DNA of 64,000 nt from Polyangiales bacterium (GCA_046351555.1 JAXLYI010000006.1:250284-314283), one strand, 5' to 3'; positions 1 through 26,212 are shown, counted from the first letter of the stretch. The notes: generated by a model not told the origin, from the letters alone. Numbers and translations: made by a program.

Positions 1-2297
1 GAGGTCGGCGCGCTCGGGGTCGCGGGCGATGACGCAGACGTTGGCGCGCGGCTCGTCGAGGCTGAGCGAGCGCAGGGCCTCGCCGAGGAAGGCCACCGCC
101 GACCCGATGTCGGGGAAGGCGTGGAGCTCGACGGGGGCGCCGTGGCGGGTGGCGAGGGGGGGCTCCGGGTCGGCGAGGGGGCCGAGCACGGCGCGGGCGA
201 AGGCGAGCACCTCCATCGTCGAGCGGTACCCGATGCGCAGGGGCTCGACCGCGACGCCCTGGAGCCCGAGGTCGCCCAGGACGCCGCGCCAGTCGGTGAA
301 GCCGTTGTCCATGTGGAGCCGCTGCGCGGTGTCGCCGGCGAGGGTCACCGAGCGGTCGTCGGAGGCGGTGTCCATCACGACGGCGAGCTCGACGGGGGAG
401 AGGTCCTGCGCCTCGTCGATGAAGACGTGCTCGTAGCGCAGGGGCTGCTTGGCGGGGCCGCGCAGCGCGCCGCGCTTCACCTGGTAGATGCGCATGAGGA
501 GCGCGTCGTCCTCGGGGTCGATGGTGGGGGCCTCGTCGTCCTCGGCGACGCCGTCGGCGCCCACCGCGGGCCCGGCGTCGTCGTCGAGGTGGTCGTCGCC
601 CTCCTCGTCGCGGCCGTCCTCGCGCCACGAGCGGACGCTCTCGCGGGCCTCCTCGACGGCCTCGCCGGCGGCGAGCTCCTCGCGCTCGGTGCCCTCGTCG
701 CGGCGCTCGCCCCGCTCCTTCGCGCGGGCGGCGCGGCGCTCGGCGCGCTCGGCGCGGGCGGCGCGGCGGCCCTCCTTCGCCTCGGTCTCCTCGTCGTCCT
801 CGTCGCGCTCGGCGTGGACCCACCGGGCCGCGCGCTCGCTCGACCAGCGCACCGCGCCGGCGATCTCGTCGGCGCTGAACTCCCCGGGCGCGTGCGCGGC
901 CGCGGCCGCGGCGATCGCCTTGGCGTCGGTGACGAGCTCGGCCCAGTCCCACACCACGTCGCGGGCGCGGCGGTTCCAGCGGTCGAGGGGCTTCTGGAGG
1001 TCGTGGGCGGCGCGGGAGCCGAGCGAGGGGCCCGCCACGCCGCCGAGCTCGCGCTCGCCGCGGAGCCACTGCATCAGCCCGGCGACGCGGCGCGAGAGCG
1101 GCGACCCGTCGAGCGCGGCCCACGCCCGCCCCACCGCCTCGCCGACGCCCGTGCGCTCGGCCACGCGGAGCAGCTCCTCCTTCGCGGCGGCCTCCTCCTT
1201 CGCGGCGCGCGCGTCGATGAGCTTGAGCATCAGCGGGTGCTTCTTCAGCCGCGTCACCGCCGCGGGCGTGTCGTCGGAGTACGCGTCGGGCGCGCGGGAG
1301 ACGTGGCGCTGGCGGGCGCGGGAGATCCACTCGGCGTACGTGGCCACCTGCACGCCCTCGACCCCGAGCGCCGGCAGCACCCGCACGATGTACGACGCCA
1401 GCGCGCGGTTGAACACCACGATGAGCATCTTGTCGGGCGCGAAGCGCTTGGGCTGGTTGAAGGCGAGCCACGCCATGCGGTGCAGGCCGATGGTGGTCTT
1501 GCCGCTGCCGGCGCCGCCCTGGATGAGCACGATCCCCGAGTGGGGCTTGGTGATGAGCTCGAACTGCCGCGGGTCGATGAGCGCCGGGATCTCCGGCAGG
1601 TGGTGGTCCTCGCGGCCCTCGACGCCGGCGCCGAGCCGGCCCTTGCGGTTGGCGGCGGCGCGGCGCTCCTCCTCGGTGGGCGGGCGCACGGCGGAGAGCT
1701 GGCCGCCCTCGAGCTTCGCGGGGCCCTCGTCGCCGCGCGTCCACGCGCCCTTCACGTGGTAGTAGGTGCCCTGCGGAGCGATGATGCGGCGCAGCTTCGA
1801 GTCGCGGATCACCACCGCGCGGCGCATCGCCACCTCGCCCTCGACGAGGCGCCCGCCGATCTCCTCCTCGTAGGGGTCGCCCTCGCCGTAGCGGTAGTAG
1901 ATCTTCGAGACCGGGGCGTCGCGCCAGTCGACGATGCGCACGCCGCTGTCGATGTCGACGTACGTCCCGTTGCCGATGAGCACGTCGCGGACGCGCCCGC
2001 CCTCCATGAGCTTCATGTGCCCGAAGTAGGGCGAGGCGGGGTTGACGGCGCCGGTCACCACCTCGGCGCGGCGGCTGGCGACGTTGCGCAGGCGCTCCAT
2101 CTCGGCGAGCAGCGCGGGCACGTCCTCCATGCGCGCCTCACCGATCGCGTCGCGCAGCTCGATGAGCTCCTGGTCGTAGTCCTTGCGGGATGACTCGCGC
2201 GCGGTGCGGGCGTTGGCCAGGACGCGGGCGAGGGTCTTCTCCTCCTCGGCGGTGACGCGGGCGAGGTCGGGGTCGGCGGGGCGCGGCGGGTCGCTCA
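1..2297 (-). CDS. SF1 helicase, UvrD/HelD-like (helicase IV-like), partial; runs off the window start
   Basis: Minus-strand translation starts MSDPPRP at 2297 and has no stop inside the window. Walker A reads QGGAGSGKT (about nt 1500-1560). The ATPase core sits after a roughly 250-aa N-terminal region, as in HelD. There is a charged E/R/A-rich low-complexity insert. The plus-strand ORFs over this region have junk composition. Confidence 0.75.
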
Positions 2298-5840: not shown

Positions 5841-7130
5841 ATGGAGCGAAGGAAATTTCTCGGTCTGGGCGTGCTCGCCGGCCTCGCCGCCGGCGTCGCC
5901 CCCGGCACGCGCCGGATGCTCGATGCGCAGCCGATGCCGCCGTCGTCCAACTCGGAGCCCTACACGGGCCGCTTCTTCCTGATGATCGACGCGGGCGGCG
6001 GCTGGGACCCGACGATGGTCTGCGACCCGAAGGGCGGGGACATCAACCACCAGTTCATGCCGAGCGCGATCCGGTCGGCGGGCAACATCCCGTACGCGCC
6101 GATCACCTACGCCGACGGCTACAGCAACCAGCGCTTCTTCGAGAAGTTCCACTCGCGGCTGCTGGTGCTGAACGGGGTCGACACGCAGACGGTCAACCAC
6201 GACTCGGGCAACCGCTTCACGTGGTCGGGGCGCCTGGAGGACGGCTACCCCCCGCTCGCGGCCATCATCGCCGCGGCGCTCGCGCCTGGCCGCCCGCTCG
6301 GCTTCCTCAGCAACGGCGGCTACGAGAACACCGTCGGCGTGGTGCCCCTCGCGCGCCTGCCGAGCCTCGACACCATCGGGCGCATCGCGTACCCCAACCG
6401 CACCGACCCCTCCATGGAGCAGGCCCGCTACCTCTCCGAGGCGTCGTACCAGCGCATCCGCCGCTACCAGCGCGAGCGCACCCTCGCCCAGGCCGACCAG
6501 TCCACCCTGCTCGCCTACGAGAACTCCCTGCGCCAGCTCGCGGCCACGCGCGCCGGGTCGAACCTCCTCGAGCGGCTGATGCAGTTCCTCCCCGGCAACG
6601 ACGTGCTCGGGCGGACGCAGAACCCCATCCTGCGCCAGGGCATGGTGGCGCTCGCGGCCTACCAGGCCGGCGTGACGGCGGCGGCCAACCTCGCGGTCGG
6701 CGGCTTCGACACCCACGGCCAGCACGACACCAACCAGGGCGCCGCCCTCTCGCGCCTCCTCCAGGGCGTCGACCAGCTCATGGACCGCGTCGACATGCTC
6801 GGCCTCGCCGACAAGGTCACCGTGGTCGTCGGCTCGGACTTCGGCCGCACGCCCGTCTACAACGCCCAGATGGGCAAGGACCACTGGTCGGTCACCAGCA
6901 TGCTGATGATGGGCGCGGGCGTGCGCGGCGATCGGGTGATCGGCGCCAGCAACGAGGCCCAGCGCGCGCGCGGCCTCGACTACACCACCCTCGCCGTCAG
7001 CGACGCGAGCACGCGGAAGCTCAACCCCAAGGCGATCCACACGGCGCTGCGCCGGCTCGCGGGCGTCGAGTCCTCCGAGGTGGCGCGGCAGTTCCCCATC
7101 TACGGCGACCGGATCGACCTGTTCAGTTGA
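5841..7130 (+). CDS. Tat-secreted DUF1552/DUF1501-like partner protein
   Basis: Twin-arginine signal MERRKFLGLGVLAGLAAG. About 430 aa. It starts 15 nt after the heme protein. This family is commonly paired with DUF1592-type proteins. The listed 3561..7130 ORF is a read-through artefact of this frame. Confidence 0.6.
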   Translation: MERRKFLGLGVLAGLAAGVAPGTRRMLDAQPMPPSSNSEPYTGRFFLMIDAGGGWDPTMVCDPKGGDINHQFMPSAIRSAGNIPYAPITYADGYSNQRFFEKFHSRLLVLNGVDTQTVNHDSGNRFTWSGRLEDGYPPLAAIIAAALAPGRPLGFLSNGGYENTVGVVPLARLPSLDTIGRIAYPNRTDPSMEQARYLSEASYQRIRRYQRERTLAQADQSTLLAYENSLRQLAATRAGSNLLERLMQFLPGNDVLGRTQNPILRQGMVALAAYQAGVTAAANLAVGGFDTHGQHDTNQGAALSRLLQGVDQLMDRVDMLGLADKVTVVVGSDFGRTPVYNAQMGKDHWSVTSMLMMGAGVRGDRVIGASNEAQRARGLDYTTLAVSDASTRKLNPKAIHTALRRLAGVESSEVARQFPIYGDRIDLFS

Positions 7131-7133
7131 GCG

Positions 7134-8141
7134 CTACGCCGTGAAGCGGTACCAGCCGTAGCTCACGCGCTCCAGCTTCCCCTCCGCCAGCATCTTCTTC
7201 ACCGCGCCCGGCGTGTGCCCGAGCGCCTTCAGCTCCCCCGCGGTGTACTCCCGCGCGGGTGTGGGGGCCTTCTTCGGCGCGGCCGCGGGCGCCTTCTTCG
7301 GCGCGGCCTTCTTCGGCGCGGCGGCCTTCTTCGGCGCGGCGGCCTTCTTCGGCGCGGCCGCGGGCGACGCGCTGACGGCGCCGTCGAGGTCGATGCCGAA
7401 CAGGTCGGCGAGGGCCTCGTCGCTCGCCTCGATCGCCCGCGGGGAGGCCACCCGCGCGCCCACGCGGCGGCCGGCCTCGGCGACGAGCTCGTTCATGTCG
7501 ACGCCGCGGAGCACGAAGAGGAGGTCGGGCTTCGTGTCGAGGCGCGCCCCGACGCCGTAGAGCACCGCGGCGACGTGCTTGCACACGTAGGCCCCGTCGG
7601 GGCACGAGCACGCGGCGTTGAGCTCCGACGCGCGGGGGATCATCCCGTCCTTGCTGTGCGTGAGCGCGCCCATCGCCTCGCCCGACACCTTGCCCTGGAG
7701 CAGCTCGAGCAGCGAGCCCACCCGCCCCGCGCACGACTCCCGCAGGCGCCTCCAGCGGTCGGCCGGGAGCGGCGTCACCGTCACCTGCACCGTGTAGAGC
7801 GACGAGCCGCTCACGAGGGCCTCGACGCGCCCCTTGGAGATGCCCAGGTGCGCCACGGAGCCGTTGCGGAGGTACGTCTTCCCCCGCGGGAGGCGGTTGG
7901 AGAAATCCGCCATGGACTCCAGCGCGTCGCACCACTGCTTGCCCCAGAAGGTGGTCGCCATCGCGCGCCCCGTCACCGACACGGGCTCGACCGGGAGGCC
8001 CTTCTTCTTCCGGGCCGCCATCGCCTTGTCGGCCGTCGCGCGGCGCGCGGCCACGGGCACGTACGGGGCCCACTGTGAGGCGCTGTAGCGCTCTCGGCTG
8101 CTCCATCTCGCCATGGGCGTGATGAGAGCTCCCGACCTCAC
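7134..8141 (-). CDS. SWIM zinc-finger protein with lysine-rich histone-H1-like tail
   Basis: CxCx6CxH SWIM motif (CSCPDGAYVCKH). A KKAAAP repeat tail is encoded by the 21-bp tandem repeat. It overlaps the upstream SNF2 gene by 4 nt. Confidence 0.75.
   Translation of the reverse strand: MRSGALITPMARWSSRERYSASQWAPYVPVAARRATADKAMAARKKKGLPVEPVSVTGRAMATTFWGKQWCDALESMADFSNRLPRGKTYLRNGSVAHLGISKGRVEALVSGSSLYTVQVTVTPLPADRWRRLRESCAGRVGSLLELLQGKVSGEAMGALTHSKDGMIPRASELNAACSCPDGAYVCKHVAAVLYGVGARLDTKPDLLFVLRGVDMNELVAEAGRRVGARVASPRAIEASDEALADLFGIDLDGAVSASPAAAPKKAAAPKKAAAPKKAAPKKAPAAAPKKAPTPAREYTAGELKALGHTPGAVKKMLAEGKLERVSYGWYRFTA
7264..7365. repeat. 21-bp tandem repeat (about 5 copies, GCCTTCTTCGGCGCGGC-like) encoding the KKAAAP tail of the SWIM protein
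   Basis: Visible tandem copies of ggccttcttcggcgcggc(g) on the + strand. Confidence 0.7.
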
Positions 8142-10861
8142 CCCTCGTCAAGGGCGCGCGCGAGGTCGAGGGAGACCACCTTCATCAGCTCGTCGTCGGA
8201 GAGCGCGGTGAGGTTCACCTCGGCGCCGCCCGGCGCGTCGAGGACGGCGTCGGCCAGCGCCCGCTTGCTCGTGAGCATCGCGTCGATCTTCTCCTCCAAC
8301 GTGCCGCGGCACACGAAGCGGTGCACCATCACGTTGCGCCGCTGCCCGATGCGGTAGGCGCGGTCGGTGGCCTGGTTCTCCACCGCGGGGTTCCACCAGC
8401 GGTCGAAGTGGACGACGTGCTGGGCGGCGGTGAGCGTCAGCCCGGTGCCCCCGGCCTTCAGCGACAGCACGAAGAAGGGGACGTTGGGGTCGCTCTGGAA
8501 GGCGGCCACCAGCTTCGCCCGCTGCTTCACCGGCACCTTGCCGTCGAGCACCACCCCCGCCGCGCCGAACACCCCCGCCAGCAGCGCCGCCAGCGGGCCC
8601 GTCATCTCTTGAAACTGCGTGAACACCAGCGCCTTCTCGCCGCGCGAGGCGACCTCCTCCGCGAGCTCGCGCAGCCGCGCGTACTTGCCGCTCGCGCCCG
8701 GGTCGAAGCGCCCGTCGCCCGTGAGCTGCGAGGGGTGGTTGCACGCCTGCTTGAAGCGCGTGAGCGACGCCAGCACCGCCCCCCGCCGCGCCGCCGGGTC
8801 GGCCGCGTCGGAGAGCTTGCGCTTCAGGTCGGCGATCACCTCGGCGTAGAGCTTCGCCTGGAGCGCGGTGAGCGAGCACCACGCCGTCACCTCCGTCTTG
8901 TCGGGCAGGTCGGCGATGACGCGCTTGTCGGTCTTGAGGCGCCGCAGGATGTACGGCCCCACGAGGCGCCGCAGGGGCCCGTAGCCCTCGCGCGACCCCT
9001 CCCCCGCGAGCGCCTTCGCGTAGCGCGAGAAGCTCTTCGCGCCGCCCAGAAGGCCCGGCTGGAGGAAGTCGAAGAGCGACCAGAGGTCGCCGAGGCGGTT
9101 CTCGACGGGCGTGCCCGTGAGCGCGAGGCGGGCGGCGCCGCGGAGCGACTTCACCGCGCGCGACTGCTTCGTGTCGGCGTTCTTGATCGCCTGCGCCTCG
9201 TCGATCACCACGACGTTCCACGGGCGCTCGCGGAGCCACGCGGCGCGGGCCACCATGCCGTAGCTGGTCACCACGACGTCGAGCCCGTCGCCCCACCCGG
9301 CCCCGTCGTCGGGCGGCGCCTCGGCGCCCGCGGAGGGGTGCGCGGTGCCCACGCGGAGCGACGGCGCGAAGCGGGCGAGCTCCGCGCGCCAGTTGGCCAG
9401 CAGCGACGCCGGCGCCACCACGAGGCTCGGCGGCGCGGCCTTCCGCTGGTGCTTCTTCTCCACCGCGAGCAGCGCGATCACCTGGAGCGTCTTGCCGAGC
9501 CCCATGTCGTCGGCGAGGCAGCCCCCGAGGCCGACCGTGCGGAGGAGCCAGAGCCACCGCAGGCCGTGCTCCTGGTAGGGCCGGAGCTTCGCCGTGAGGG
9601 CCTTGCCGGGGTCGACGTCGCCGAGGCCGCCCGGGTCGCGCAGGCCGCGCAGCAGGTCACGCAGCCAGGGCCCGGGCTCGACGCGGACCCACGCCGCGGC
9701 GCCCTCGTCGACGAGCGCGGGGTCGAGCTCCGCGGGGGCGGCGCCGGCGAGCAGGCGGAGGGCCTCGTGGACGGAGAGCCCGTCGCGCGCGCTCCGCTGC
9801 ACGTCGCGCCACCGCGCGAGGAGGGCCTCCAGGCGCCCCGCGTCGACCTCCACCCAGCGGCCGCGGAGGTTGACGAGCCCGGTGCCTGCGGCGCGGAGCA
9901 CGGCGAGGTCGTCGGGCGTGAGGGCCTCGTCGCCGAGCGCGAGCTCGACGGAGAAATCGAGCAGCGCGTCGAGGGAGAGGCGCTCCCGGTGCTCGGCGCC
10001 GACGCGCACGCGGACGGCGGGGCGCGCGGGGGCGCGGGGGTTCCACCAGTCGGGGAGGCGGACGGAGACGCCCGCGGCCTCGCAGTCGGGCGCGGCCTTG
10101 AGGAAGGCGTAGGCGCGCGCGGCGCTCCAGGCGAGGGGCTGGAAGATGTCGCCCGCGTCGACGAGGCCCTTCACGAAGGGGACGGTCTCCGACGCGCGCC
10201 GCACAGGCTCGAGGAGCGACTCCAGCCGCGCGCGGTCGCCCGTCTCCGCGGCCTCCTTCATCGCGCGCCCGAGCGGCGCGTGCTGCACCCTCCCCGCCGC
10301 GGAGACCCCCGTGGTGTAGGTCGCGAGGAAGGCGAAGGGGGCGGCCGCGTCGCCCTTGCGCTCCGCGAGGTGGAAGCACACGCGCCCCACGCGGTGCCAG
10401 AGCGGGCTCTGCGCCTGGAGCCACTGCTCCGCCGTGCCCTGCCACGCGCCGAGCGCCTCCGCGAGCGGGCCGTGGAGGCTCTCCCACCAGCGCCCGAGGA
10501 GCTCGACGTCGACGTACTCCGCGCCGGGCATCGGCGGCACGGCATCGGCGAGCGCCTCGAGCTCGTCGTCGGGCGGCGGCGGGACGCGCGCGTCGGCGCG
10601 GAGGGACTCGAGGTCGGGGAGTGCGCAGAGGCGGGCGACGAAGGCGCGGGCGACGTCGCGCAGCCACGCGAAGGGCGCCGGGAGCTGCGCGGCCACCTCG
10701 CGGGCGCCGAGTTGGAGGAGCCCGTGCCAGGGGCCGCGCGCGAAGGCCGCGAGGGTGCGCGCGGCGACGGCCTCGTCGACGAAGGGAGCGGCGCCGTCGA
10801 GGGCGCGCAGCGTGAGGTCGCCGGCGGCGGTGACGTGCGGCGAGGGGGGGGCGGCGGTCAT
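8138..10861 (-). CDS. SNF2/RapA-family helicase
   Basis: SNF2 N-terminal motifs LADDMGLGKT, DEAQAIKN and LTGTPVENRLGDLWSLF. Helicase C motifs LKAGGTGLTL and FDRWWNPAVENQATDRAYRIGQ. Confidence 0.85.
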   Translation of the reverse strand: MTAAPPSPHVTAAGDLTLRALDGAAPFVDEAVAARTLAAFARGPWHGLLQLGAREVAAQLPAPFAWLRDVARAFVARLCALPDLESLRADARVPPPPDDELEALADAVPPMPGAEYVDVELLGRWWESLHGPLAEALGAWQGTAEQWLQAQSPLWHRVGRVCFHLAERKGDAAAPFAFLATYTTGVSAAGRVQHAPLGRAMKEAAETGDRARLESLLEPVRRASETVPFVKGLVDAGDIFQPLAWSAARAYAFLKAAPDCEAAGVSVRLPDWWNPRAPARPAVRVRVGAEHRERLSLDALLDFSVELALGDEALTPDDLAVLRAAGTGLVNLRGRWVEVDAGRLEALLARWRDVQRSARDGLSVHEALRLLAGAAPAELDPALVDEGAAAWVRVEPGPWLRDLLRGLRDPGGLGDVDPGKALTAKLRPYQEHGLRWLWLLRTVGLGGCLADDMGLGKTLQVIALLAVEKKHQRKAAPPSLVVAPASLLANWRAELARFAPSLRVGTAHPSAGAEAPPDDGAGWGDGLDVVVTSYGMVARAAWLRERPWNVVVIDEAQAIKNADTKQSRAVKSLRGAARLALTGTPVENRLGDLWSLFDFLQPGLLGGAKSFSRYAKALAGEGSREGYGPLRRLVGPYILRRLKTDKRVIADLPDKTEVTAWCSLTALQAKLYAEVIADLKRKLSDAADPAARRGAVLASLTRFKQACNHPSQLTGDGRFDPGASGKYARLRELAEEVASRGEKALVFTQFQEMTGPLAALLAGVFGAAGVVLDGKVPVKQRAKLVAAFQSDPNVPFFVLSLKAGGTGLTLTAAQHVVHFDRWWNPAVENQATDRAYRIGQRRNVMVHRFVCRGTLEEKIDAMLTSKRALADAVLDAPGGAEVNLTALSDDELMKVVSLDLARALDEG

Positions 10862-12044: not shown

Positions 12045-12782
12045 ATGGGAACGAGCGACGACAGCACACCAAGACCCGACCGCGCCACCTTGGATCGCGC
12101 CGCCCGGCGCGCCCTCACCTTCCTCCTCGCCGTCGGCCGCGACCCGGTCGCGCGGGGCTTGCTGGAGACCCGCGGCTACAGCGCCAACGAGCACGCCGAG
12201 GGCTGGCGCCTCCTTCGCGCGGTCGACCCCACGGCGCGGGCCGGCGGGCACCGCGACGAGGACGAGGCCGCCGCGCGCCTCGCCGTCGCCCGCGTCGACG
12301 CCTGGGGCCACCAGAACCTCCCCATCCTCGACCTCGCGCTCCGCCGCCGCGAGCCCGCCGCCCACCGGTTCGTCTTCGCGGGCGACCTCGCGCCCGCCGA
12401 CGGCGCCGCGTCGACGCGTTCGGTCGCGGTCTTCCTCGAACGTGTCGACGCGCTGGTCGGCGTCGCGTCGCGGGGCGTCGACCCGGCGGTCGCCGTCACC
12501 CCGCGGCAGGCGCGGGTCGCGCTCGCGATCCTGACGAGCCGCGGCGCGGGCGACGACGTGCGCGAGACCGTCCACCGCTGGCTCGACTTCGCGCGGAAGC
12601 ACGCGGCCCCGGCGGAGGCGGGCGACCCCGACGCGGCGCTCGTGGCGCTCCACGAGTGGCTGAGCGAGTGGCGGCTCATCGCGCGCAAGGTCGTGACGCG
12701 CAGGGGCCACCTCGTCGCGCTCGGGCTCGTCGGGAAGAGGCCCGCCGCGAAGCCCCCGCGCGACCTCGCGCCGAACCGTTGA
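12045..12782 (+). CDS. Hypothetical protein
   Basis: This ORF has balanced amino-acid composition. The competing frames are R/P-rich junk. I recognise no domain. Confidence 0.4.
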   Translation: MGTSDDSTPRPDRATLDRAARRALTFLLAVGRDPVARGLLETRGYSANEHAEGWRLLRAVDPTARAGGHRDEDEAAARLAVARVDAWGHQNLPILDLALRRREPAAHRFVFAGDLAPADGAASTRSVAVFLERVDALVGVASRGVDPAVAVTPRQARVALAILTSRGAGDDVRETVHRWLDFARKHAAPAEAGDPDAALVALHEWLSEWRLIARKVVTRRGHLVALGLVGKRPAAKPPRDLAPNR

Positions 12783-15331: not shown

Positions 15332-16564
15332 GTGACGCCCTCGCCGACACTCACGCCCTTCCACCGAAAGGGCTTCGTCGTGGTCGCTCCGGGTCGCCGC
15401 CTGCGCCTGTGCCTCAAGGACCTCTACCACCAGGACGTGGTCGAGATGATCGAGCGCGAGACGCGCGCGTTCGAGCTCTGGGAGATCGTCGACCCCGACG
15501 ACCCGGGCTTCGCGGCGGCCTACAAGGTGCTCTGGGACGCCTTCGGCGCGCACGGCGAGATGGAGCGCGAGGACGTGATCAAGCGCTTCCTCCGCGACGA
15601 CGCCTTCGACCCGCTCCCGTCGGGCACGTACGTCCGCTACTTCCTCATCGCCGCGCGCGACAAATCGGGCCGGCTCCTCGGCGTGCGCGACGGCTCGGTG
15701 CTGGTCAACCCCGCCTACGACCCCGACCTCTGCCTCGTGTACCTGTCGCACCTCTACATGGTGCCCGAGGCGCGCGGCACGGTGCTCTCGTACGAGCTCC
15801 GCATCGCGCCCGTCGAGGTGGCGATGGACTACCTCGCCGAGCTCCACGCGCGCGGCAAGGTGAAGCTCCCGGCGCCCGACCAGCCCGGACGTCACTTCGG
15901 GATGCGCGTCGACCTCACCGCGGAGATGGAGTACTACGCGCCCGACGACCCGGTGTCGTGGCAGCGCATCTTGTTCTACGGCCGCGGGGGCTTCGACGCG
16001 GTGAACCCGCGCCACTTCCCCTACCTCCAGCCCGACTTCCGCGAGCCCGAGGAGATCCGCGCGACCGGCAACCGCCCGCTCCCCTTCATGGTGCTCGTGC
16101 GGCGCATGGGCCGCGAGCGCCAGGCCGCGATGCCGATCGCCGAGGCGCGCGCGATCCTGCGGCTGCTCTACGACGACTTCGCCTGCCACTGCGAGCCCGA
16201 GCACCTCGGCAACAGCCTCCAGCGCGTGCTCGACCGCCTCGCCGAGCGCGCGACGCGGAAGTCCTTCGTCGAGCTCCTCCCGCTGCCGAGCGGCCCGAAG
16301 GACCTCCACCGCATCCGCCCCCTCTTCCGGTACAGCGTCTTCCAGAAGTACTACCGCGGCGCGACGCCGGTGGTGGACGAGTACCTCGAGGGCCCCGTGC
16401 GCGAGCGGATCAAGGCCAACGCGGCGTACCTCGACGAGGAGCTGCGCAGGCTCGCGAAGCACCTGGAGAGCCGCCCCCGCTACGTCTACGCCAGCCGCGA
16501 CAAGGACCAGACCTGGGAGGGCAAGTCCGCCGGCACGCTCGACCCGCCGGACTTCAACCCGTAG
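15332..16564 (+). CDS. Hypothetical protein with N-terminal GNAT-like fold
   Basis: Normal amino-acid composition. The segment LYMVPEARGTVLSYEL resembles GNAT motif A. The C-terminal roughly 200 aa are unassigned. Confidence 0.5.
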   Translation: MTPSPTLTPFHRKGFVVVAPGRRLRLCLKDLYHQDVVEMIERETRAFELWEIVDPDDPGFAAAYKVLWDAFGAHGEMEREDVIKRFLRDDAFDPLPSGTYVRYFLIAARDKSGRLLGVRDGSVLVNPAYDPDLCLVYLSHLYMVPEARGTVLSYELRIAPVEVAMDYLAELHARGKVKLPAPDQPGRHFGMRVDLTAEMEYYAPDDPVSWQRILFYGRGGFDAVNPRHFPYLQPDFREPEEIRATGNRPLPFMVLVRRMGRERQAAMPIAEARAILRLLYDDFACHCEPEHLGNSLQRVLDRLAERATRKSFVELLPLPSGPKDLHRIRPLFRYSVFQKYYRGATPVVDEYLEGPVRERIKANAAYLDEELRRLAKHLESRPRYVYASRDKDQTWEGKSAGTLDPPDFNP

Positions 16565-19393: not shown

Positions 19394-20323
19394 ATGAGCG
19401 GCACGGATCGGCCTCGGATCGGCGTGGCGGGACTCGGGATCATGGGCTCGGGGATGGCCGCCAACCTCGTGCGCAAGGGCTTCCCCGTCGCGGTGTGGAA
19501 CCGCACGCGCAAGGCCGCCGACACGCTCGCCGCGCTCGGCGCGAAGGTGGCCGCGACGCCGCGCGCGCTCGCCGAGCAGAGCGACGTGGTGGTGACGTGC
19601 CTCTCGACGCCGACGGTGGTGGGCTCGGTGGCGACGGGCCACGACGGGCTGCTCTCGGGCGTGCGCCCGGGGATGCGCTGGGTCGACACGAGCACCATCG
19701 GCCGCCCCACCGCGCTCGCGATGGCCGAGGCGGCGCGGAAGTACGGGGTGGAGTTCCTCGAGGCGCCGGTGACGGGGTCGAAGCAGGGCGCGCGCGACGG
19801 GACGCTGGTGGTGATGACCGGCGGCGCCTGGGAGACCCACCTCGCGTGTTTGCCTGTGCTCGAGGCGATCGGGTCGAAGGTGATCTACGTCGGGCCGCTC
19901 GGCACCGCCGCGGTGATGAAGCTCATCGGCAACACGGTGATCTCCTTCATGCTCGAGGGGCTCGCCGAGGGCGCCACGCTCGGCGCGCGGGCGGGCATTC
20001 CGTTCGAGAAGATTCTGGAGGTCATCCAGGCCTCGGGCTTCGCCTCGCCCTACTGGAACTTCAAGGGCGGCGCGATGGCCCGCCGCGACTTCGATCCGCA
20101 CTTCTCCATCAACCTCCTGCACAAGGACCAGTCGCTCGCCCTCGCCGAAGCCGCCTGGTACCGCGTGCCGATGCCGGGGCTCGCGGTGATCCAGCAGGTG
20201 ACGGCGACGGCGCGCGCGCTCGGCCACGGCCACGAGGACATCGCCGCGCAGATCAAGGCCGTCGAGGCGATGGCCGGCGCCCCCGAAGGGCGCGTGAGCG
20301 ACCGCCCCTCCGAGCTGCCCTGA
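19394..20323 (+). CDS. NAD(P)-dependent oxidoreductase, 3-hydroxyisobutyrate dehydrogenase family
   Basis: N-terminal GLGIMGSGMAANL Rossmann motif and overall HIBADH-family pattern. Confidence 0.8.
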   Translation: MSGTDRPRIGVAGLGIMGSGMAANLVRKGFPVAVWNRTRKAADTLAALGAKVAATPRALAEQSDVVVTCLSTPTVVGSVATGHDGLLSGVRPGMRWVDTSTIGRPTALAMAEAARKYGVEFLEAPVTGSKQGARDGTLVVMTGGAWETHLACLPVLEAIGSKVIYVGPLGTAAVMKLIGNTVISFMLEGLAEGATLGARAGIPFEKILEVIQASGFASPYWNFKGGAMARRDFDPHFSINLLHKDQSLALAEAAWYRVPMPGLAVIQQVTATARALGHGHEDIAAQIKAVEAMAGAPEGRVSDRPSELP

Positions 20324-20429
20324 GCACCGGCACGCTTCCTGGTAAGAACCTCCCCGAAGCCCGCGGGCGGCGCCGTTGTGCCACCGCGAGCCACGGGCGT
20401 GAAGCCCGCGCAACACCAGGAGCGAGACG

Positions 20430-21356
20430 ATGCGAACGATGCGATGGGTACTGATGGCCGCGCTGGCTGCCGCCGCGGCGGGCTGTGGCAGCGTGGTGGT
20501 TCAGCCCGGGCCCGGCGACGCGGCCGCGGTCGACGTCCCGGCGACGTCCGACACGCCCGCGCCGCCGCCGGACGCGCGGCGCACCTGCACCTCGAGCGCC
20601 GACTGCGCCCCCGGCGAGGAGTGTTACATCGCCGAGGGGTGCGCGGTGCCGAGCGTCTGCGGCCCTGCGCTCGGGCGGCCCTGCACCGACGACCTCGCGG
20701 CCTTCTGCGGCTGCGACGGCCAGACCTTCTCCTCCAGCTCGTCGTGCCCCTCGCGCACCTACGCCCACCGCGGGCCCTGCGAGGCGGCGGACGGCGGCCC
20801 TGGGGGCTGCGCGTTCCCTGACGGGCGCGTGTGCCCCTTCGGGCAGACGTGCCCCGCCGGCGACGGCTGCAACTCGTGCTCGTGCGGCCGCGACGGGACG
20901 ATCGCGTGCACGGGCCTGGCGTGCGTCGACGCGGGGCCGCCGGTGGACGTGCCCGCGCCCGGCTCGTGCCGGAGCGGCGCCGACTGCCCGCCCTCGATGA
21001 TGTGCGACGGCCCGGCCGGCTGCGGCGTGCCCTGGTCGTGCGTGCCGCCGCATCCCTGCACGGCGGACGTCGCGCCCTTCTGCGGCTGCGACGGGGCGAC
21101 CTTCTACGGGAGCTCGAGCTGCCCCGGCCAGATGTACCAGTCGCGCGGCGCGTGCCCCGCGGCGGACGGCGGCGCGGTGGCGTGCCGCGCGCAGGACGCC
21201 CGCGGCGACGGCCTCTGCGACGCCATCTTCGGCTACGCGTGGAACGGCATGACCTGCGTCGTCGTCACCGGCTGCCGCTGCGTCGGCGCCGACTGCGGCG
21301 CGCTCCTCCGCGACCCGGCCGCCTGCCGCGCGCGCTACGCCGCCTGCGGCGGCTGA
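20430..21356 (+). CDS. Cys-rich lipoprotein with two Kazal-like repeats
   Basis: Lipobox AAAAGCGS. The unit CxxGExC ... FCGCDGxTFxxSSSCP ... GxC occurs twice. About 36 Cys in total. Confidence 0.6.
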   Translation: MRTMRWVLMAALAAAAAGCGSVVVQPGPGDAAAVDVPATSDTPAPPPDARRTCTSSADCAPGEECYIAEGCAVPSVCGPALGRPCTDDLAAFCGCDGQTFSSSSSCPSRTYAHRGPCEAADGGPGGCAFPDGRVCPFGQTCPAGDGCNSCSCGRDGTIACTGLACVDAGPPVDVPAPGSCRSGADCPPSMMCDGPAGCGVPWSCVPPHPCTADVAPFCGCDGATFYGSSSCPGQMYQSRGACPAADGGAVACRAQDARGDGLCDAIFGYAWNGMTCVVVTGCRCVGADCGALLRDPAACRARYAACGG

Positions 21357-21399
21357 GCGTTCGTTCGCCCCCCGAACCATCGCCCGACGGCGCCGTCGC

Positions 21400-22027
21400 T
21401 CACCGATGGCGCCAGCGCTCGAGCCAGGCGTGGCGCGCCCACGCGCGGCGCTCGCAGGTGTAGTCGCGGAGGTCGCCGCCGAAGCCGTTCCAGGTGACGA
21501 CGGGGGTGCCGGACGGGGCGGCGGCGAGGGCGTCTTCGACGAAGGTGACGTCGGCGTCGAAGCCGTCGCGGCCGCGGGGCCACGCGAGGTCGATGCAGTC
21601 GCCCTCGTCGAGGTGGTGCTCGGCGAAGGGGTTGAAGAGGTAGAAGCCGTCGTGCGCGGCCCAGTCGACGTCGCGCACGTCGCCGCAGACGAAGCGCGCG
21701 CGCGACGCCCCGAGGGCCCCCGCCGCGGCCCGCGCCGCCTCCACCAGCCACGGCCGCCGCTCGACGCCCGTGAACGCGAGGTCCGTCACCAGCGCGCCCG
21801 CCACGCAGAAGCGCCCCGCGCCCGCGCCGACGTCGAGCACCCGCGTCGCGCCCGCCTCCGCGAGCCACGCGGCCGCCGTCGCCGCCACCTCCACCGGCGT
21901 CGCGTGCTGCGGTCGGAAGCGCCGGAACGCCTCGGGGTACGCGCCGTCGAGCATCGCGTCGGCCGCGTCGCTCCCCGCGCGGATCGACGCCGCCACCGCC
22001 GCCGCCACCGCCGCCGGGTCGGTCACC
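21400..22027 (-). CDS. Class I SAM-dependent methyltransferase (putative)
   Basis: VLDVGAGAGRF motif I. GTG start overlaps the upstream stop (GTGA). The longer listed ORF is N-terminal junk. Confidence 0.5.
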
Positions 22028-23663
22028 GCACGCGCCCCAGGCGCATCGGCCGCACCTCGACGGGCTCGCGCGCGCTGTGCCAGCGCTCGCCTCGGTCGTC
22101 CGACCAGAGCACCGCCGTCGTCGCCCCGCTCGCGAAGAGGACCACCCGGTCGTCGACCGCGAAGAGCCACAGGTCGCGCGCCGAGAGCCCGCCGTGCGCC
22201 GCGTCGTCGTCCACCGCGAACGCCCGCGCCGACGAGAACGCGCGGGGCGCCCCGTGGCGTGCGCGCAGCCCGTCGCCACCGTCGCGCGTCGCCCACACCG
22301 CGACGAGCTCGCCACCAACGCGGACGGCCCGCGCCAGGCCCTCCAGCGCGACCGACGGCGGGCAGTCCCCGCCCCGCTCGCAGCCCTGCGCGCGCGAGGC
22401 GCCGACGAGCGCGGCCCCGGACGCGTCGCACGCGAGCTCCGCGGGGGGCGTGACGGCGTCGAAGCTCCCGACGAGGCGCGGCGCGGCGTCTCCCTCCGCG
22501 ACGACGAGGTGCGCGCGGGCGCCGTCGGTGACGGCGACGTAGGCGACGCCCGGCGCGTGACAGCTCGCGAGGAGCGCGCCCGTCGACGAGAGCCCGGTGA
22601 CGCGAACCGCGGGCGCAGGCGCCGCGTCGTCGAGGCGCCGCGCGTCGAGCGAGGGGGTCGCGTCGGGGCCCGCGACGCCCACCCACCAGCGGGCGCGGCC
22701 GGTGGAGAGGATCGCCGACTCGCGCTGCGCGGGGACGCCGAGCGGCGTGAACGCGCACGCGCCGCCGCGCACGCAGCGGGCGAGGGCCGGCGCGCCGGGG
22801 CCCTCGGCGACCGCGTGGAAGACGTCGCCCGCGACGCGCACCGGGAGGCTCGCGGCGAGGGCGCGGCCGACAATGAACACCGGCGCGTCGGGCGCGTCGG
22901 CCGGCGCGACGGAGGCCGTGGGGAGCCCGCGCAGGAGGAGGGCCTCGGGGCCGTCGTTGCCGACGAGCCAGGACGGGGCGTCGTCGCCCGCACCAAGGCG
23001 GCGGCAGGCGACGGTGACGCCGCGGTCGCGCGAGCGGCAGAAGACGCGCTCGTGGGAGGGCTCGACGAAGAGCACCGAGAGCGTGCCGGCCGACGCGCTC
23101 CAGCCGGCGACGGTGGCGCCCGGCGCGACCGACGCGGGCACGACGTCGCCCGCAGTGCTCGCGAGCGCGTGGGCCTCGGGGACGCGTGGGGCACGCGCGG
23201 GGCCGAGGCCGCGGGAGGCCGCGTGCGCGCGGTCGGCGCGGCGGAGCTCGACGGCGCGCGGCACCCACGCGAAGGCCGCGCCCTCGCCCGCCCCCTCGCG
23301 GAAGGCCGTGATGGCGGCGGGGAGCGCGGCGTCGCCGAGGGCGCGGAGGAGGGCCGCGGCGGCAGCGTTGGCGGGCGAGGCGGCGGCGAGGGCGCGCACG
23401 TGCGGGGCGCAGGCGCCGGGCCACGCGGCGGCGGTGTCGGGGTGGAGCGCGACGCGGCGCGCGCGGGCCGCGAGGTCGCGGTCGGGGAGCCCGGGGGCGC
23501 CGAAGAGGCAGGCGTCGACGGCGGCGGCCGCGTCGTGCGCGCGGACGGCCGCGGCGCGTTCGGCGGCGAGGCGCGCGGTCTCGCGGCGGCGCACGCGGGC
23601 GAGGAGGCCGGCGGCGGCGAGGGCCGCGATTAGCGCGGCGAGCGCGGCGAGGCGGGGGCGCAT
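22023..23663 (-). CDS. Secreted/membrane-anchored hypothetical protein
   Basis: Starts MRPRLAALAALIAALAAAGLL (signal/TM). About 546 aa with normal composition. Confidence 0.45.
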   Translation of the reverse strand: MRPRLAALAALIAALAAAGLLARVRRRETARLAAERAAAVRAHDAAAAVDACLFGAPGLPDRDLAARARRVALHPDTAAAWPGACAPHVRALAAASPANAAAAALLRALGDAALPAAITAFREGAGEGAAFAWVPRAVELRRADRAHAASRGLGPARAPRVPEAHALASTAGDVVPASVAPGATVAGWSASAGTLSVLFVEPSHERVFCRSRDRGVTVACRRLGAGDDAPSWLVGNDGPEALLLRGLPTASVAPADAPDAPVFIVGRALAASLPVRVAGDVFHAVAEGPGAPALARCVRGGACAFTPLGVPAQRESAILSTGRARWWVGVAGPDATPSLDARRLDDAAPAPAVRVTGLSSTGALLASCHAPGVAYVAVTDGARAHLVVAEGDAAPRLVGSFDAVTPPAELACDASGAALVGASRAQGCERGGDCPPSVALEGLARAVRVGGELVAVWATRDGGDGLRARHGAPRAFSSARAFAVDDDAAHGGLSARDLWLFAVDDRVVLFASGATTAVLWSDDRGERWHSAREPVEVRPMRLGRVR

Positions 23664-23692
23664 GGGGCGGCGGTTATAGTAGAGTCCGGCGC

Positions 23693-23986
23693 GTGCGCGC
23701 ACGGTTCCTGTGGCTGGCGGTGGCGTTGGGCGCGTGCGGCGGCGCGCAGCGGCCGCGCGCGGCGGGGTATTACCGCTTCCAGTGCGACCCGCCCGACGCG
23801 CGGGTGATCGTCGACGAGGAGGACCGCGGCGCCTGCTCGCTCTGGTCGACCCGCGCGCTCGGGCTGCGCGCGGGCGTCCACCGCATCCGCGTGGCGCGCG
23901 ACGGCTGGCTCCCGATGGAGTCCGAGGCCACCCCCGCGGGCGGCGTCGTGACGGTGACCGCGCGGCTGCGGCGCGTGCCGGACTGA
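23693..23986 (+). CDS. Small lipoprotein with PEGA-like domain
   Basis: Signal plus Cys. The segment GVHRIRVARDGWLPMESE ... VVTVTARL is PEGA-like. Confidence 0.4.
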   Translation: MRARFLWLAVALGACGGAQRPRAAGYYRFQCDPPDARVIVDEEDRGACSLWSTRALGLRAGVHRIRVARDGWLPMESEATPAGGVVTVTARLRRVPD

Positions 23987-24086
23987 CGGCGGGTGGGGAA
24001 GCACCGGGGCACGGGGCGTGGGCCTTGACGCCAGGGTGCGGCGCGGCGCATCTAGCGGCGCCCCCGTGGAAGGAGGGGGCGCCACG

Positions 24087-25064
24087 GTGAAACACGCGAC
24101 GCGATGGTTCCTGCTCGGCGCGGCGCTCGCTTCGTCGGCGTGCAGCTTCCGCAAGCTGACGGCCGACTCGACGGCGGACCTGCTGCACGCGAGCGCGCCG
24201 CAGTTCAACACGCTCGAAGACCTCGATTTCGCCGAGGAGAGCGCGCCCGCCAACCTCGTCACGATGGAGAGCGTGTGGCACGTGTCGCGCGAGAACGAGG
24301 ACGTCCTCGTCGAGCTCGTGCAGGGCTACGCGGCCTACGGCTACGCCTTCCTCGAAGACCGCCTGGAGCGCGCGCGGGCCGCCGACGACGAGGCCGCCGA
24401 GCAGCGGTACCGGCGGCGGACGCAGGCGGCCTACCGGCGCGCGAAGCTGTTCGGGATGACGCTGCTCGGCGTCCGCGAGTCGGTCGACGGCGGGCCGCAG
24501 GGGCGCGTCGCGGCGGGCCTCGCGGCGTGGCGCGCGTACCTCCGCCGCTTCGACGACCGGGCCGACGTCCCCGCGCTCTTCTGGACGGCCAACGCCTGGG
24601 CGTCGCTCATCGGCGTGTCGGTCGACGACACCGACGCGCTGCTCGACCTGCCCTTCGCCGTCGCGCTCGCCGAGCGGGCGCGCGAGCTCGACCCGGACTT
24701 CGCGCACGGCGCCGCGCAGGCCTTCTTCGGCGTCTACCACGCGAGTACCCCGCAGGCCGCCGGGGGCCGCCCCGACCTCGCGCGCGCCGCGTTCGAACGC
24801 GCGCTGGCCGCGTCGGGCCGCCGCTACCTCACCTGGCAGGTGCTGATGGCGCGGAGCTACGCGGTGATGGTGCAAGACCGCGCGCTCTACCGCGCGCTCC
24901 TCCAGGAGGTGCTCGACGCGGGCGACGTGATGCCCGAGGAGCGCCTCTCCAACCTCGTCGCGAAGCGCCGCGCCGAGCGCTACCTCGCCGAGATCGACGA
25001 GGTGTTCCCCCCCGAGGAGGGCGCCGCCGCGGCGACCCCTTCGACCGCCGGAGAGACGCCATGA
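24087..25064 (+). CDS. TRAP-transporter-associated TatT-like TPR lipoprotein
   Basis: GTG start preceded by GGAAGGAGGGGG. Lipobox LASSAC. TatT-like helical repeat protein. Overlaps DctP by 4 nt. Confidence 0.6.
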   Translation: MKHATRWFLLGAALASSACSFRKLTADSTADLLHASAPQFNTLEDLDFAEESAPANLVTMESVWHVSRENEDVLVELVQGYAAYGYAFLEDRLERARAADDEAAEQRYRRRTQAAYRRAKLFGMTLLGVRESVDGGPQGRVAAGLAAWRAYLRRFDDRADVPALFWTANAWASLIGVSVDDTDALLDLPFAVALAERARELDPDFAHGAAQAFFGVYHASTPQAAGGRPDLARAAFERALAASGRRYLTWQVLMARSYAVMVQDRALYRALLQEVLDAGDVMPEERLSNLVAKRRAERYLAEIDEVFPPEEGAAAATPSTAGETP

Positions 25065-26212
25065 ACGCACGCCCCCTCGGCGCCCTCGCCCCGCTCGCCG
25101 CCGCCGTCACCTGCGTGGCGATCCCGCTCCTCGTGTGGGCCCAGCCCGCACGCCGCGACGCGGGCGCGGCTTTGCGGGACGCGGGCGTTGCACGACCCGA
25201 CGCGGGCCCCGCGCGGCGCGACGCGGGCGCCACCGACGCAACCGCGGGCGCGCCGGCCGACGCCGCGGTTCCGCCGGACGCCGCAGCGAGCGCAGTGCGG
25301 ACGCTCTCGCTCGCGACGCTGGCGCCGATCGGCTCCACCTGGATGCGCACCCTCGAGGCGTGGAACCGCGACCTCCGCCGCCGCACCGGCGCGACGCTCT
25401 CGCTGCGCATCTACCCGAACGGGGTGCAGGGCGACGAGGGCGAGGTGGTGCGCAAGGTCCGCAGCGGTCGCCTCGACGGCGGCGCCCTCACCGCGGTGGG
25501 GCTCGCGCTCATCCACCGGCCCGTGCTCGTCTTCCAGGCGCCCGGGCTCTTCGCCGACGACGCGGCCCTCGACCGCACGCGCGACGCGCTCGCCCCCGAG
25601 CTCGAGGCGGGCTTCGCGCAGGCGGGCTTCGCGCTCGTGGGCTGGGGCGACGCCGGCACCGACCGCGTCTTCTCCGACCGCGCCGTCCGCTCGCCCGACG
25701 ACCTCGCCCGCACCCGGCTCTTCCTCTGGAGCGACGACCTGCTCAGCCCCACGCTCTACGAAGAGCTCCACGTCCGCGGCGTGCCCATGGGCCTGCCCGA
25801 GGTGCTCACGTCGCTCCAGACGCGCACGCTCGACACGGTGATCGCGCCGCCGATCGCCGTCGCCTCGCTCCAGTGGGCCGCGCACGTCACCCACATGACC
25901 GACCTGCGCGTCGCCACCGAGGTCGGCGCGCTGGTGTTCGGCCGGGCGCAGCTCGATTCGCTCTCGCCCGCGCAGCGCGACGCGTTGCGCGAGACGGCGC
26001 GGCAGTACGCCGGGCTCCTCGTGCGCAACGTCCGCCGCGAGGACGACGGCGCCGTCGCCCCGATGCGGGCGCGCGGCCTCGCCGTCGACGCCGTCACGCC
26101 CGCCGAGCGGGCCCGCTGGGAGGCGGCCTTCGCGCGCACCCGCGCCCGGCTCGTCGGCGTGCTCGCGGAGGCGCCCTTCCTCGAGCGCGTCGAGCGGCTC
26201 GCCCGCCCCTGA
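25061..26212 (+). CDS. TRAP transporter solute-binding protein, DctP family
   Basis: Signal peptide and DctP-family pattern (SLATLAPIGSTWMRTLEAWNRDL ... RIYPNGV). No DctQ/DctM genes are adjacent. Confidence 0.7.
   Translation: MNARPLGALAPLAAAVTCVAIPLLVWAQPARRDAGAALRDAGVARPDAGPARRDAGATDATAGAPADAAVPPDAAASAVRTLSLATLAPIGSTWMRTLEAWNRDLRRRTGATLSLRIYPNGVQGDEGEVVRKVRSGRLDGGALTAVGLALIHRPVLVFQAPGLFADDAALDRTRDALAPELEAGFAQAGFALVGWGDAGTDRVFSDRAVRSPDDLARTRLFLWSDDLLSPTLYEELHVRGVPMGLPEVLTSLQTRTLDTVIAPPIAVASLQWAAHVTHMTDLRVATEVGALVFGRAQLDSLSPAQRDALRETARQYAGLLVRNVRREDDGAVAPMRARGLAVDAVTPAERARWEAAFARTRARLVGVLAEAPFLERVERLARP

Follow-up and report, generated by a model that had tools for sequence, protein, structure and literature searches.

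A SNF2-family ATPase and its SWIM zinc-finger partner in a Polyangiales bacterium: a probable DNA-tethering role for the partner

The locus described here, an operon of two genes on the chromosome of a Polyangiales (Myxococcota) bacterium, lies in a 64-kb stretch of DNA (GCA_046351555.1, JAXLYI010000006.1:250284-314283) with a G+C content of ~75%, referred to below as the window, in whose positions all coordinates are given. On the minus strand, an open reading frame (ORF) at 8138-10861 encodes a 907-residue SNF2-family ATPase, as an earlier note on this DNA had stated, and a second ORF, which ends at 7134, comes after it and encodes a protein with a SWIM zinc finger; the two genes are clearly co-transcribed. 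SNF2 motors drive chromatin remodelling in eukaryotes, and we know of no assigned job for any bacterial SNF2 relative other than RapA. Our analysis points to a DNA-tethering role as the probable function of the SWIM partner, and places the locus as an ordinary member of a very large, widespread and uncharacterised module, in which the winged-helix end of the SWIM protein is specific to this lineage. An exact-sequence lookup shows the SNF2 protein to be the same as NCBI MFO0603718.1, which comes from a Polyangiales (Myxococcota) metagenome-assembled genome; the SWIM protein and a neighbouring oxidoreductase gave no exact match in the same collection.

Three Pfam domains are recognised in this SsoRad54/SSO1653-like, SWIM-associated ATPase, all on the minus strand: DUF3670 (PF12419; residues 240-370, 9752-10144; E = 1.5e-34), the first ATPase lobe, SNF2-rel_dom (PF00176; residues 429-711, 8729-9577; E = 2e-62), and the second lobe, Helicase_C (PF00271; residues 728-839, 8345-8680; E = 2.9e-18). 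The ATPase motifs GLGKT, DEAQ, TGTPVENR and QATDRAYRIGQ are intact in the translation. The best relative among solved structures is Sulfolobus SSO1653 (SsoRad54, 1z63; E = 3.6e-119), followed by ZorD (8qy7; 2.7e-71) and, judged by its sequence, the window enzyme is of the SsoRad54/SSO1653 type, nearer to SSO1653 than to the other Snf2 subfamilies. It had previously been called RapA-like, a label that we drop: RapA/HepA was considered and rejected, the NCBIfam RapA model (PRK04914) giving 37.6 bits against a cut-off of 576. The best NCBIfam match, to the SCO1167/SCO6262 family helicase, reaches 565 bits and lies below the 1200-bit cut-off, a score that marks the protein as a relative, not an equivalog, of that family. 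SsoRad54 is reportedly a translocase on double-stranded DNA (dsDNA), and by this kinship a dsDNA-stimulated ATPase or translocase activity is predicted for the window protein. Its N-terminal 400 residues carry a net charge of -12, and the DUF3670 region within this net acidic half, which in natural fusion proteins separates the SWIM core from the ATPase, is a candidate docking site for the SWIM subunit.

The SWIM gene is read from an ATG at 8114 to a TAG stop at 7134-7136 (minus strand), giving 326 residues. The 4-nucleotide (nt) overlap with the SNF2 gene that had been proposed, GTGA, arises only if a GTG at 8141 is taken as the start, and neither homologs nor the two closest loci support this choice. 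The Met equivalent to ATG 8114 starts nearly all of 33 aligned homologs (column at least 90%), a few of which start later or have a short extension. In a syntenic metagenomic contig (L081) the gene caller picks the equivalent ATG, 23 nt past the SNF2 stop, and in a second relative (L116), with a 98% identical SNF2 protein, the GTG is replaced by CTG and the spacer has gained 1 nt, while the ATG and the codons downstream of it are the same. From the homologous Met, the gene call in L081 and the loss of the GTG together with the 1-nt indel in L116, we conclude that the genes are most likely separated by a 23-nt spacer (8115-8137), between the SNF2 stop codon (8138-8140) and the SWIM start, with the sequence GGAG at 8132-8129. 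At the other end of the operon, the SWIM stop and the stop of a convergent DUF1501 gene (7128-7130, plus strand) are 3 nt apart and therefore leave no room for an intrinsic terminator between them.

The SWIM protein, numbered here from ATG 8114, was modelled with AlphaFold2 from an alignment of 116 sequences (mean predicted local distance difference test score, pLDDT, 84; predicted template modelling score 0.68). It begins with a conserved basic segment (residues 1-50, 7965-8114, net charge +8) of the pattern W-x-PYVPVA-x-RR...KKG, whose columns are near-invariant and which contains a predicted helix at residues 21-37; pLDDT is low for about the first 20 residues and exceeds 90 from about residue 21. 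This segment is found in stand-alone SWIM proteins and is missing from SWIM-SNF2 fusions, which align only from about residue 55. The folded core that follows (residues 51-245, 7380-7964) comprises a three-stranded sheet, several helices and the zinc finger, with pLDDT above 90 across about residues 20-222, falling to ~51-65 at the end of the core, to residue 245. It ends in an invariant L-x-D-L-F-G-I-D-L motif, of which F239 and G240 are encoded at 7395-7400. The zinc-binding motif (7575-7610), CSCPDGAYVCKH, matches CxCx6CxH, as had been noted, and scores 24.5 bits with Pfam SWIM (PF04434) against a gathering cut-off of 19.6. Its four ligands, C169, C171, C178 and H180 (C178/C180/C187/H189 in the earlier GTG-start numbering), are all invariant across 116 homolog sequences, and by fold also the window protein is of the SWIM type. 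A PADLOC candidate-system profile, PDC-S62 (566 residues), matches the protein over residues 81-123 only (GTG numbering; ~7773-7901; E = 3.6e-6); confinement of the match to a 43-residue β-sheet segment suggests a shared small element, not family membership. The positive charge of the protein is concentrated in three places, the N-terminal 50 residues (+8), a lysine-rich tract (+10) and a C-terminal winged helix (+3), and the core is approximately neutral.

The lysine-rich tract (residues 246-287, 7254-7379) has the sequence AVSASPAAAPKKAAAPKKAAAPKKAAPKKAPAAAPKKAPTPA. Its ~42 residues include 10 Lys and no acidic residue, giving a net charge of +10, and 86% are Ala, Lys or Pro; the model gives it a pLDDT of ~50-65 and no secondary structure. 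We describe it as a disordered polycationic linker on the basis of the DNA repeat, its codons, the model and relatives. The tandem DNA repeat extends overall over ~7263-7361 and encodes five KK units, as had been reported, but with a period of 18 nt rather than the 21 bp given earlier: the unit KKAAAP named at the time has six residues, and its period is therefore 18 nt. Tandem Repeats Finder (TRF) places this period at 7284-7361 (4.5 copies, 88% matches), with 15- and 24-nt registers that start at 7263, and the codon units AAAPKK, AAPKK and APAAAPKK correspond to 18, 15 and 24 nt, with two exact 18-nt copies. As DNA the array is unexceptional, since the window contains about a dozen arrays with comparable TRF scores; a second 18-nt repeat lies at 50943-51023 (3.6-4.3 copies, TRF score ~100). 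What is unusual about the array is the lysine content that it encodes, not the DNA repeat. The tract is the sole 40-residue stretch with at least 7 Lys in all six frames of the window, and Lys accounts for 1-3% of residues in the neighbouring proteins.

Rather than forming a C-terminal tail, as previously thought, the tract joins two domains in this lineage, since a conserved 39-residue module, REYTAGELKALGHTPGAVKKMLAEGKLERVSYGWYRFTA, follows it (residues 288-326, 7137-7253). The module is modelled with pLDDT above 90 in the order β-α-α-β-β and is predicted to have a winged-helix fold, similar to the N-terminal winged helix-turn-helix (wHTH) domain AbiEi_4. The Pfam match to AbiEi_4 is weak (14.2 bits against a gathering score of 25; E = 0.048), and the PADLOC AbiEi profile gives E = 5.6e-4. 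We rejected an AbiEi antitoxin as an identification: the protein ends after the 39-residue module, without an AbiEi C-terminal domain, and neither adjacent gene encodes an AbiEii nucleotidyltransferase toxin. The resemblance of the tract to histone H1, also put forward earlier, holds for composition (rich in Ala, Lys and Pro, disordered and basic) but not for homology. The window protein has no Pfam linker-histone or HC2 match at E <=0.1, and H1/HC2 homology was accordingly set aside, although a PF07382 hit is precomputed for one distant homolog (P0070); the charge density, +0.24 per residue, is also about half that of the H1 tail.

More than 4,400 database homologs of the SWIM protein were scored, in most bacterial phyla. 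A scan of genomes, one per species, yielded 80 loci from many phyla, including Planctomycetota, Verrucomicrobiota, Gamma-, Alpha- and Betaproteobacteria, Desulfobacterota, Acidobacteriota, Chlamydiota and Myxococcota. A SNF2 homolog lies directly upstream on the same strand at 74 of the 77 evaluable loci and is missing at the other 3, three further loci being cut by a contig end, so that the conservation of the pairing claimed earlier is borne out. When the flanking ORFs were clustered, no other gene occurred at more than 5 of the 80 loci. Since the pairing is kept and there is no third conserved gene, this is a self-contained two-gene module in variable surroundings. At several loci (L009, L036, L065 and others) the two genes are 0.5-2.8 kb apart, which suggests insertions between them.

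Natural fusions place the two proteins in one chain. A search with a fusion protein, the one matched among phage records, gave 1,137 matches at E <=1e-10, of which 108 are full-length fusions of ~1,170-1,190 residues with the SWIM core, ~360 further residues, DUF3670, SNF2 and Helicase_C; examples of this single-chain order are L135:5001-7841 (Wolbachia WO-associated, MN180251.1) and proteins P0121-P0240. Residues 55-215 of the window SWIM protein align with fusion residues 7-169, and residues 225-898 of the window SNF2 protein with 531-1175. On the Rosetta-stone principle, these fusions suggest that the window SWIM and SNF2 proteins work as one enzyme, with the SWIM core beside the N-terminal region of the ATPase. 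The fusions have neither the basic N-terminal segment nor the basic tract.

The best indirect evidence for the role of the tract comes from its behaviour across the family. We scored 193 members, made up of the window protein, database hits and proteins extracted from the genome loci, defining the tract as the residues past the invariant FG motif up to any C-terminal domain. Its length ranges from 24 to 172 residues and its composition from K/A/P or K/T/S to R-rich, yet the net charge is at least +4 in 182 of the 193; the earlier proposal had named orthologs without a K-rich tail, together with an invariant repeat, as the finding that would count against it, and it is not refuted on these points, as most orthologs are basic at this position and the length of the tract differs among close relatives. 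Three alternative endings occur. In 100 members the protein ends with the tract (median charge +16.5, median length 63.5 residues), in 71 the tract is followed by an XRE-type helix-turn-helix (HTH; Pfam PF01381; +11, 46 residues), and in 22, the class of the window protein, by a winged helix with the GWYRF motif (+8, 42.5 residues). The charge of the tail-only class exceeds that of the XRE HTH and winged-helix classes (Mann-Whitney p = 1e-7 and 7e-10). The conserved property of the tract is therefore its positive charge, which trades off against the presence of a DNA-binding domain, and this combination suggests that its job is to bind a polyanion, most simply DNA. Targeting to DNA or the nucleoid, as the earlier note had envisaged, is plausible and fits this family-wide charge pattern.

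Closer relatives show how the tract changes. In L081 the core is 99.2% identical to that of the window protein and the winged helix 100%, whereas the tract (38 residues) is 81% identical; in L116 the corresponding values are 95.5%, 100% and 72% (47 residues), and in L082 they are 75.9%, 82% and 52% (34 residues). All differences within the tract are in-frame indels (3, 9 nt and others) or substitutions, and 8-10 Lys are retained in every variant, as against 10 in the 42 residues of the window tract. The tract is a hotspot for length change, as expected of a repeat that encodes a disordered segment. Searching metagenomes with a 22-nt anchor taken from the part of the gene that encodes the winged helix gave 52 stretches, among which two loci hold a relative, L116, which was new, and L112, a re-find of L082; the rest are chance matches.

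We propose, with a probability of about 0.55, that the SWIM protein is an accessory subunit of an SsoRad54-type dsDNA translocase, whose core docks on the motor and whose linker and winged helix tether the complex to DNA. In this mechanism the folded SWIM core, possibly helped by the basic N-terminal segment, would bind the DUF3670-containing N-terminal half of the ATPase. The disordered +10 Ala/Pro/Lys linker of ~42 residues would bind DNA non-specifically through its charge, and the terminal winged helix would add a second DNA contact. Tethering of this kind could keep the motor on DNA or deliver it there, raising its local concentration or its processivity, and ATP-driven translocation might then remodel DNA-bound proteins or strip them off. 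RapA, and the reported RNA polymerase association of B. subtilis YwqA, suggest by analogy that RNA polymerase or nucleoid proteins are possible substrates. An experimental precedent in high-GC bacteria for the tethering role of the tract is provided by the lysine repeats of a DNA-tracking enzyme, Streptomyces TopA, which stabilise the enzyme-DNA complex and raise processivity (PMC5714199).

Several points weigh against this proposal. The contact between the SWIM and SNF2 proteins, and DNA binding by the tract and by the winged helix, are steps that we infer. The Pfam score of the winged helix is below threshold, and winged-helix domains can also bind protein, as in RPA32C. The charge density of the tract is about half that of the H1 tail, the acidity of the N-terminal 400 residues of the ATPase means that the basic segments could bind this partner rather than DNA, and the fusions without a tract indicate that some lineages can do without it for the core SWIM-SNF2 function. 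From the literature, YwqA is an RNA polymerase interactor that is 'poorly characterized' and whose deletion has mild phenotypes (PMC7385302), and in M. tuberculosis helZ and Rv2102 have been lost together in a natural deletion (PMC12817950).

A broader and more tentative proposal is that the stand-alone SWIM subunit is a modular DNA-targeting adaptor of a bacterial SNF2 remodeler, with a conserved core that would fit onto the motor and swappable C-terminal arms that would choose the chromosomal site. If this were true, HTH and winged-helix arms would give site-specific, and tail-only arms nucleoid-wide, eviction of DNA-bound proteins, and in prokaryotes the subunit would correspond to the targeting subunits that chromatin remodelers have in eukaryotes.

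The same charges can be read differently. The basic tract and N-terminal segment might dock electrostatically on the acidic N-terminal half of the SNF2 protein, holding a two-chain enzyme together or gating its ATPase as a trans-acting regulatory tail. The opposed charges (-12 against +8 and +10) are consistent with this, as is the lack of both basic elements in the fusions, which would be expected if they replace a covalent link. However, a tract that varies between 24 and 172 residues and may be K- or R-rich would be unusual for a specific protein interface, its lower charge when an HTH or winged helix is present suggests a DNA-binding job shared with these domains, and in many members a recognised DNA-binding domain, such as the XRE HTH (PF01381), is attached. 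We regard docking as an improbable explanation of the tract.

It is similarly doubtful that the tract is a semi-rigid Ala/Pro spacer, comparable to the linkers of 2-oxoacid dehydrogenase E2, that sets the distance between core and winged helix and in which the lysines are incidental. The tract does join two folded domains in the window lineage, the median Ala+Lys+Pro content is 69% in the winged-helix class, and the SWIM protein searched against solved-structure sequences returned just weak, low-complexity matches to A/P-rich linkers or tails of E2o and uS3 (E = 0.12-0.46). A spacer, however, has nothing beyond it to link in 100 of the 193 members, and it is positive charge, not Ala/Pro content, that is conserved. 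Lys otherwise makes up 1-3% of residues in this 75% GC genome, yet 8-10 are kept as the length of the tract changes.

The pair could also serve in defence against phages or plasmids, as a relative of Zorya ZorD or Dpd DpdE in which the SWIM protein senses or tethers foreign DNA. The ATPase core matches the PADLOC ZorD (E = 8.6e-122) and DpdE (E = 3.3e-114) profiles, and SWIM-associated SNF2 ATPases have been placed among relatives of conflict systems (PMC5512222); helZ and Rv2102, likened to the window pair by description only, are variably present in M. tuberculosis (PMC12817950). These matches nevertheless span the generic ATPase core only (residues ~416-890; 416-874 for ZorD), and the NCBIfam scores are far under the equivalog cut-offs, 288 against 1500 bits for ZorD and 43.4 against 500 for DpdE. 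No nuclease Pfam domain was found in the SNF2 protein, no ZorABC or Dpd partner or third conserved gene was found at the 80 loci or in the window, and membership of either system was rejected. Of 72,556 plasmids, 126 carry the family and most of these are large replicons from Bradyrhizobium, Streptomyces and Cupriavidus, but the matches, listed and counted by genus, are largely to megaplasmids or chromids, and only 1 of 50,697 phage records has a match, which is to a fusion protein. The conjugative megaplasmid pHG1 of Cupriavidus necator H16 (L136, 183318-196016) carries a tail-only SNF2-SWIM pair no more than a few kb from a ParD/ParE toxin-antitoxin pair and a restriction endonuclease gene, a setting that favours defence; the window neighbours are of housekeeping type and their synteny is kept in relatives. 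The searchable literature yielded no paper linking SWIM and SNF2 to anti-phage activity, and we consider a defence role unlikely.

Finally, a contingency locus, in which slippage acts as an on/off switch for the SWIM protein or its winged helix, can be dismissed as very improbable: the repeat has two exact 18-nt copies and its length differs among close relatives (34-47 residues), as had been anticipated, but every unit (15, 18 or 24 nt) and every observed indel is a multiple of three, so that no frameshift results, the winged helix stays in frame in every variant, only length and not expression state can vary, and comparable arrays are common in the genome. Phase variation, the other half of the earlier suggestion, was thus rejected. 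Taken as a whole, the earlier reading of the locus retains its two genes, the SWIM motif, the lysine-rich repeat and the pairing, and loses the 21-bp period, the C-terminal position of the tract, the gene overlap and the likeness to RapA.

The remaining genes near the operon comprise a divergent quinone-oxidoreductase-like gene, an EF-G paralog, DUF1501 and PSD-family genes and a PrsW protease, and the same gene order is found in L081, the contig of a close relative. Further long ORFs lie at 12045-12782 (+), 121-2193 (+), 15332-16564 (+), 20253-21380 (-) and 22023-25070 (-), none with a Pfam match at E <=1e-4 (<=0.1 for the first). In L081 a UvrD-type helicase gene lies beyond PrsW and, for this reason, the ORF at 121-2193 (+) may be the shadow of a UvrD gene on the minus strand that extends beyond the start of the window. 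Other strong tandem repeats are found at 56839-57212 (a 129-nt unit, 2.3-2.7 copies, TRF score ~350) and 55614-55756 (a 42-nt unit, 3.5 copies, score 237); both periods are multiples of three and may encode repeated protein segments.

The family-wide patterns amount to a testable model rather than a surprise, and they indicate which constructs to make. With a core that is conserved, an arm that is disordered and charged, and DNA-binding ends that can be swapped, the module suggests a way, open to testing, in which the motor may reach DNA. The papers found do not mention the charged arm, the three alternative C-terminal endings or the arm-less fusions. The description of the pair as functionally uncharacterised agrees with our reading of the searchable literature, in which no functional study of a SNF2-SWIM pair was found and YwqA is still 'poorly characterized' (PMC7385302).

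Among known systems, Zorya ZorD, Dpd DpdE and RapA/HepA have the SNF2 ATPase core in common with the window enzyme, which differs from them in its model scores (288 of 1500, 43 of 500 and 38 of 576 bits, respectively) and in having no nuclease domain or partner genes. The N-terminal wHTH of AbiEi (AbiEi_4) and the C-terminal module of the window protein share a small wHTH pattern with G-x-Y-R at its end, the latter being predicted to fold as a winged helix; unlike AbiEi, the window module is joined to a SWIM protein and has SNF2 and DUF1501 genes as neighbours. The C-terminal domain of Streptomyces TopA, HupS (PMC5714199, PMC11229371) and the C-terminal tail of eukaryotic H1 resemble the window tract in being A/K/P-rich, disordered, repetitive and positive, without sequence homology and with a higher charge density than the +0.24 per residue found here. 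In TopA, moreover, the repeats are on the DNA-tracking enzyme itself and stabilisation of DNA binding has been shown (PMC5714199), whereas the window tract is internal and belongs to an accessory subunit.

The fused helicases of Rickettsiales, Holosporales, Endozoicomonas and Marinobacterium are homologous to the window pair in SWIM core, DUF3670 and ATPase (median identity 33% and 37.5%), and differ from it in being single chains of ~1,175 residues with no basic N-terminal segment, tract, C-terminal HTH or winged helix. The bacterial examples named in the literature, YwqA and HelZ-Rv2102, are likened to the window pair by description only. Like that pair, the functionally uncharacterised SWIM-associated SNF2 family named in the literature (PMC5512222) combines an ATPase of the SSO1653 subfamily with a SWIM protein encoded by the adjoining gene.

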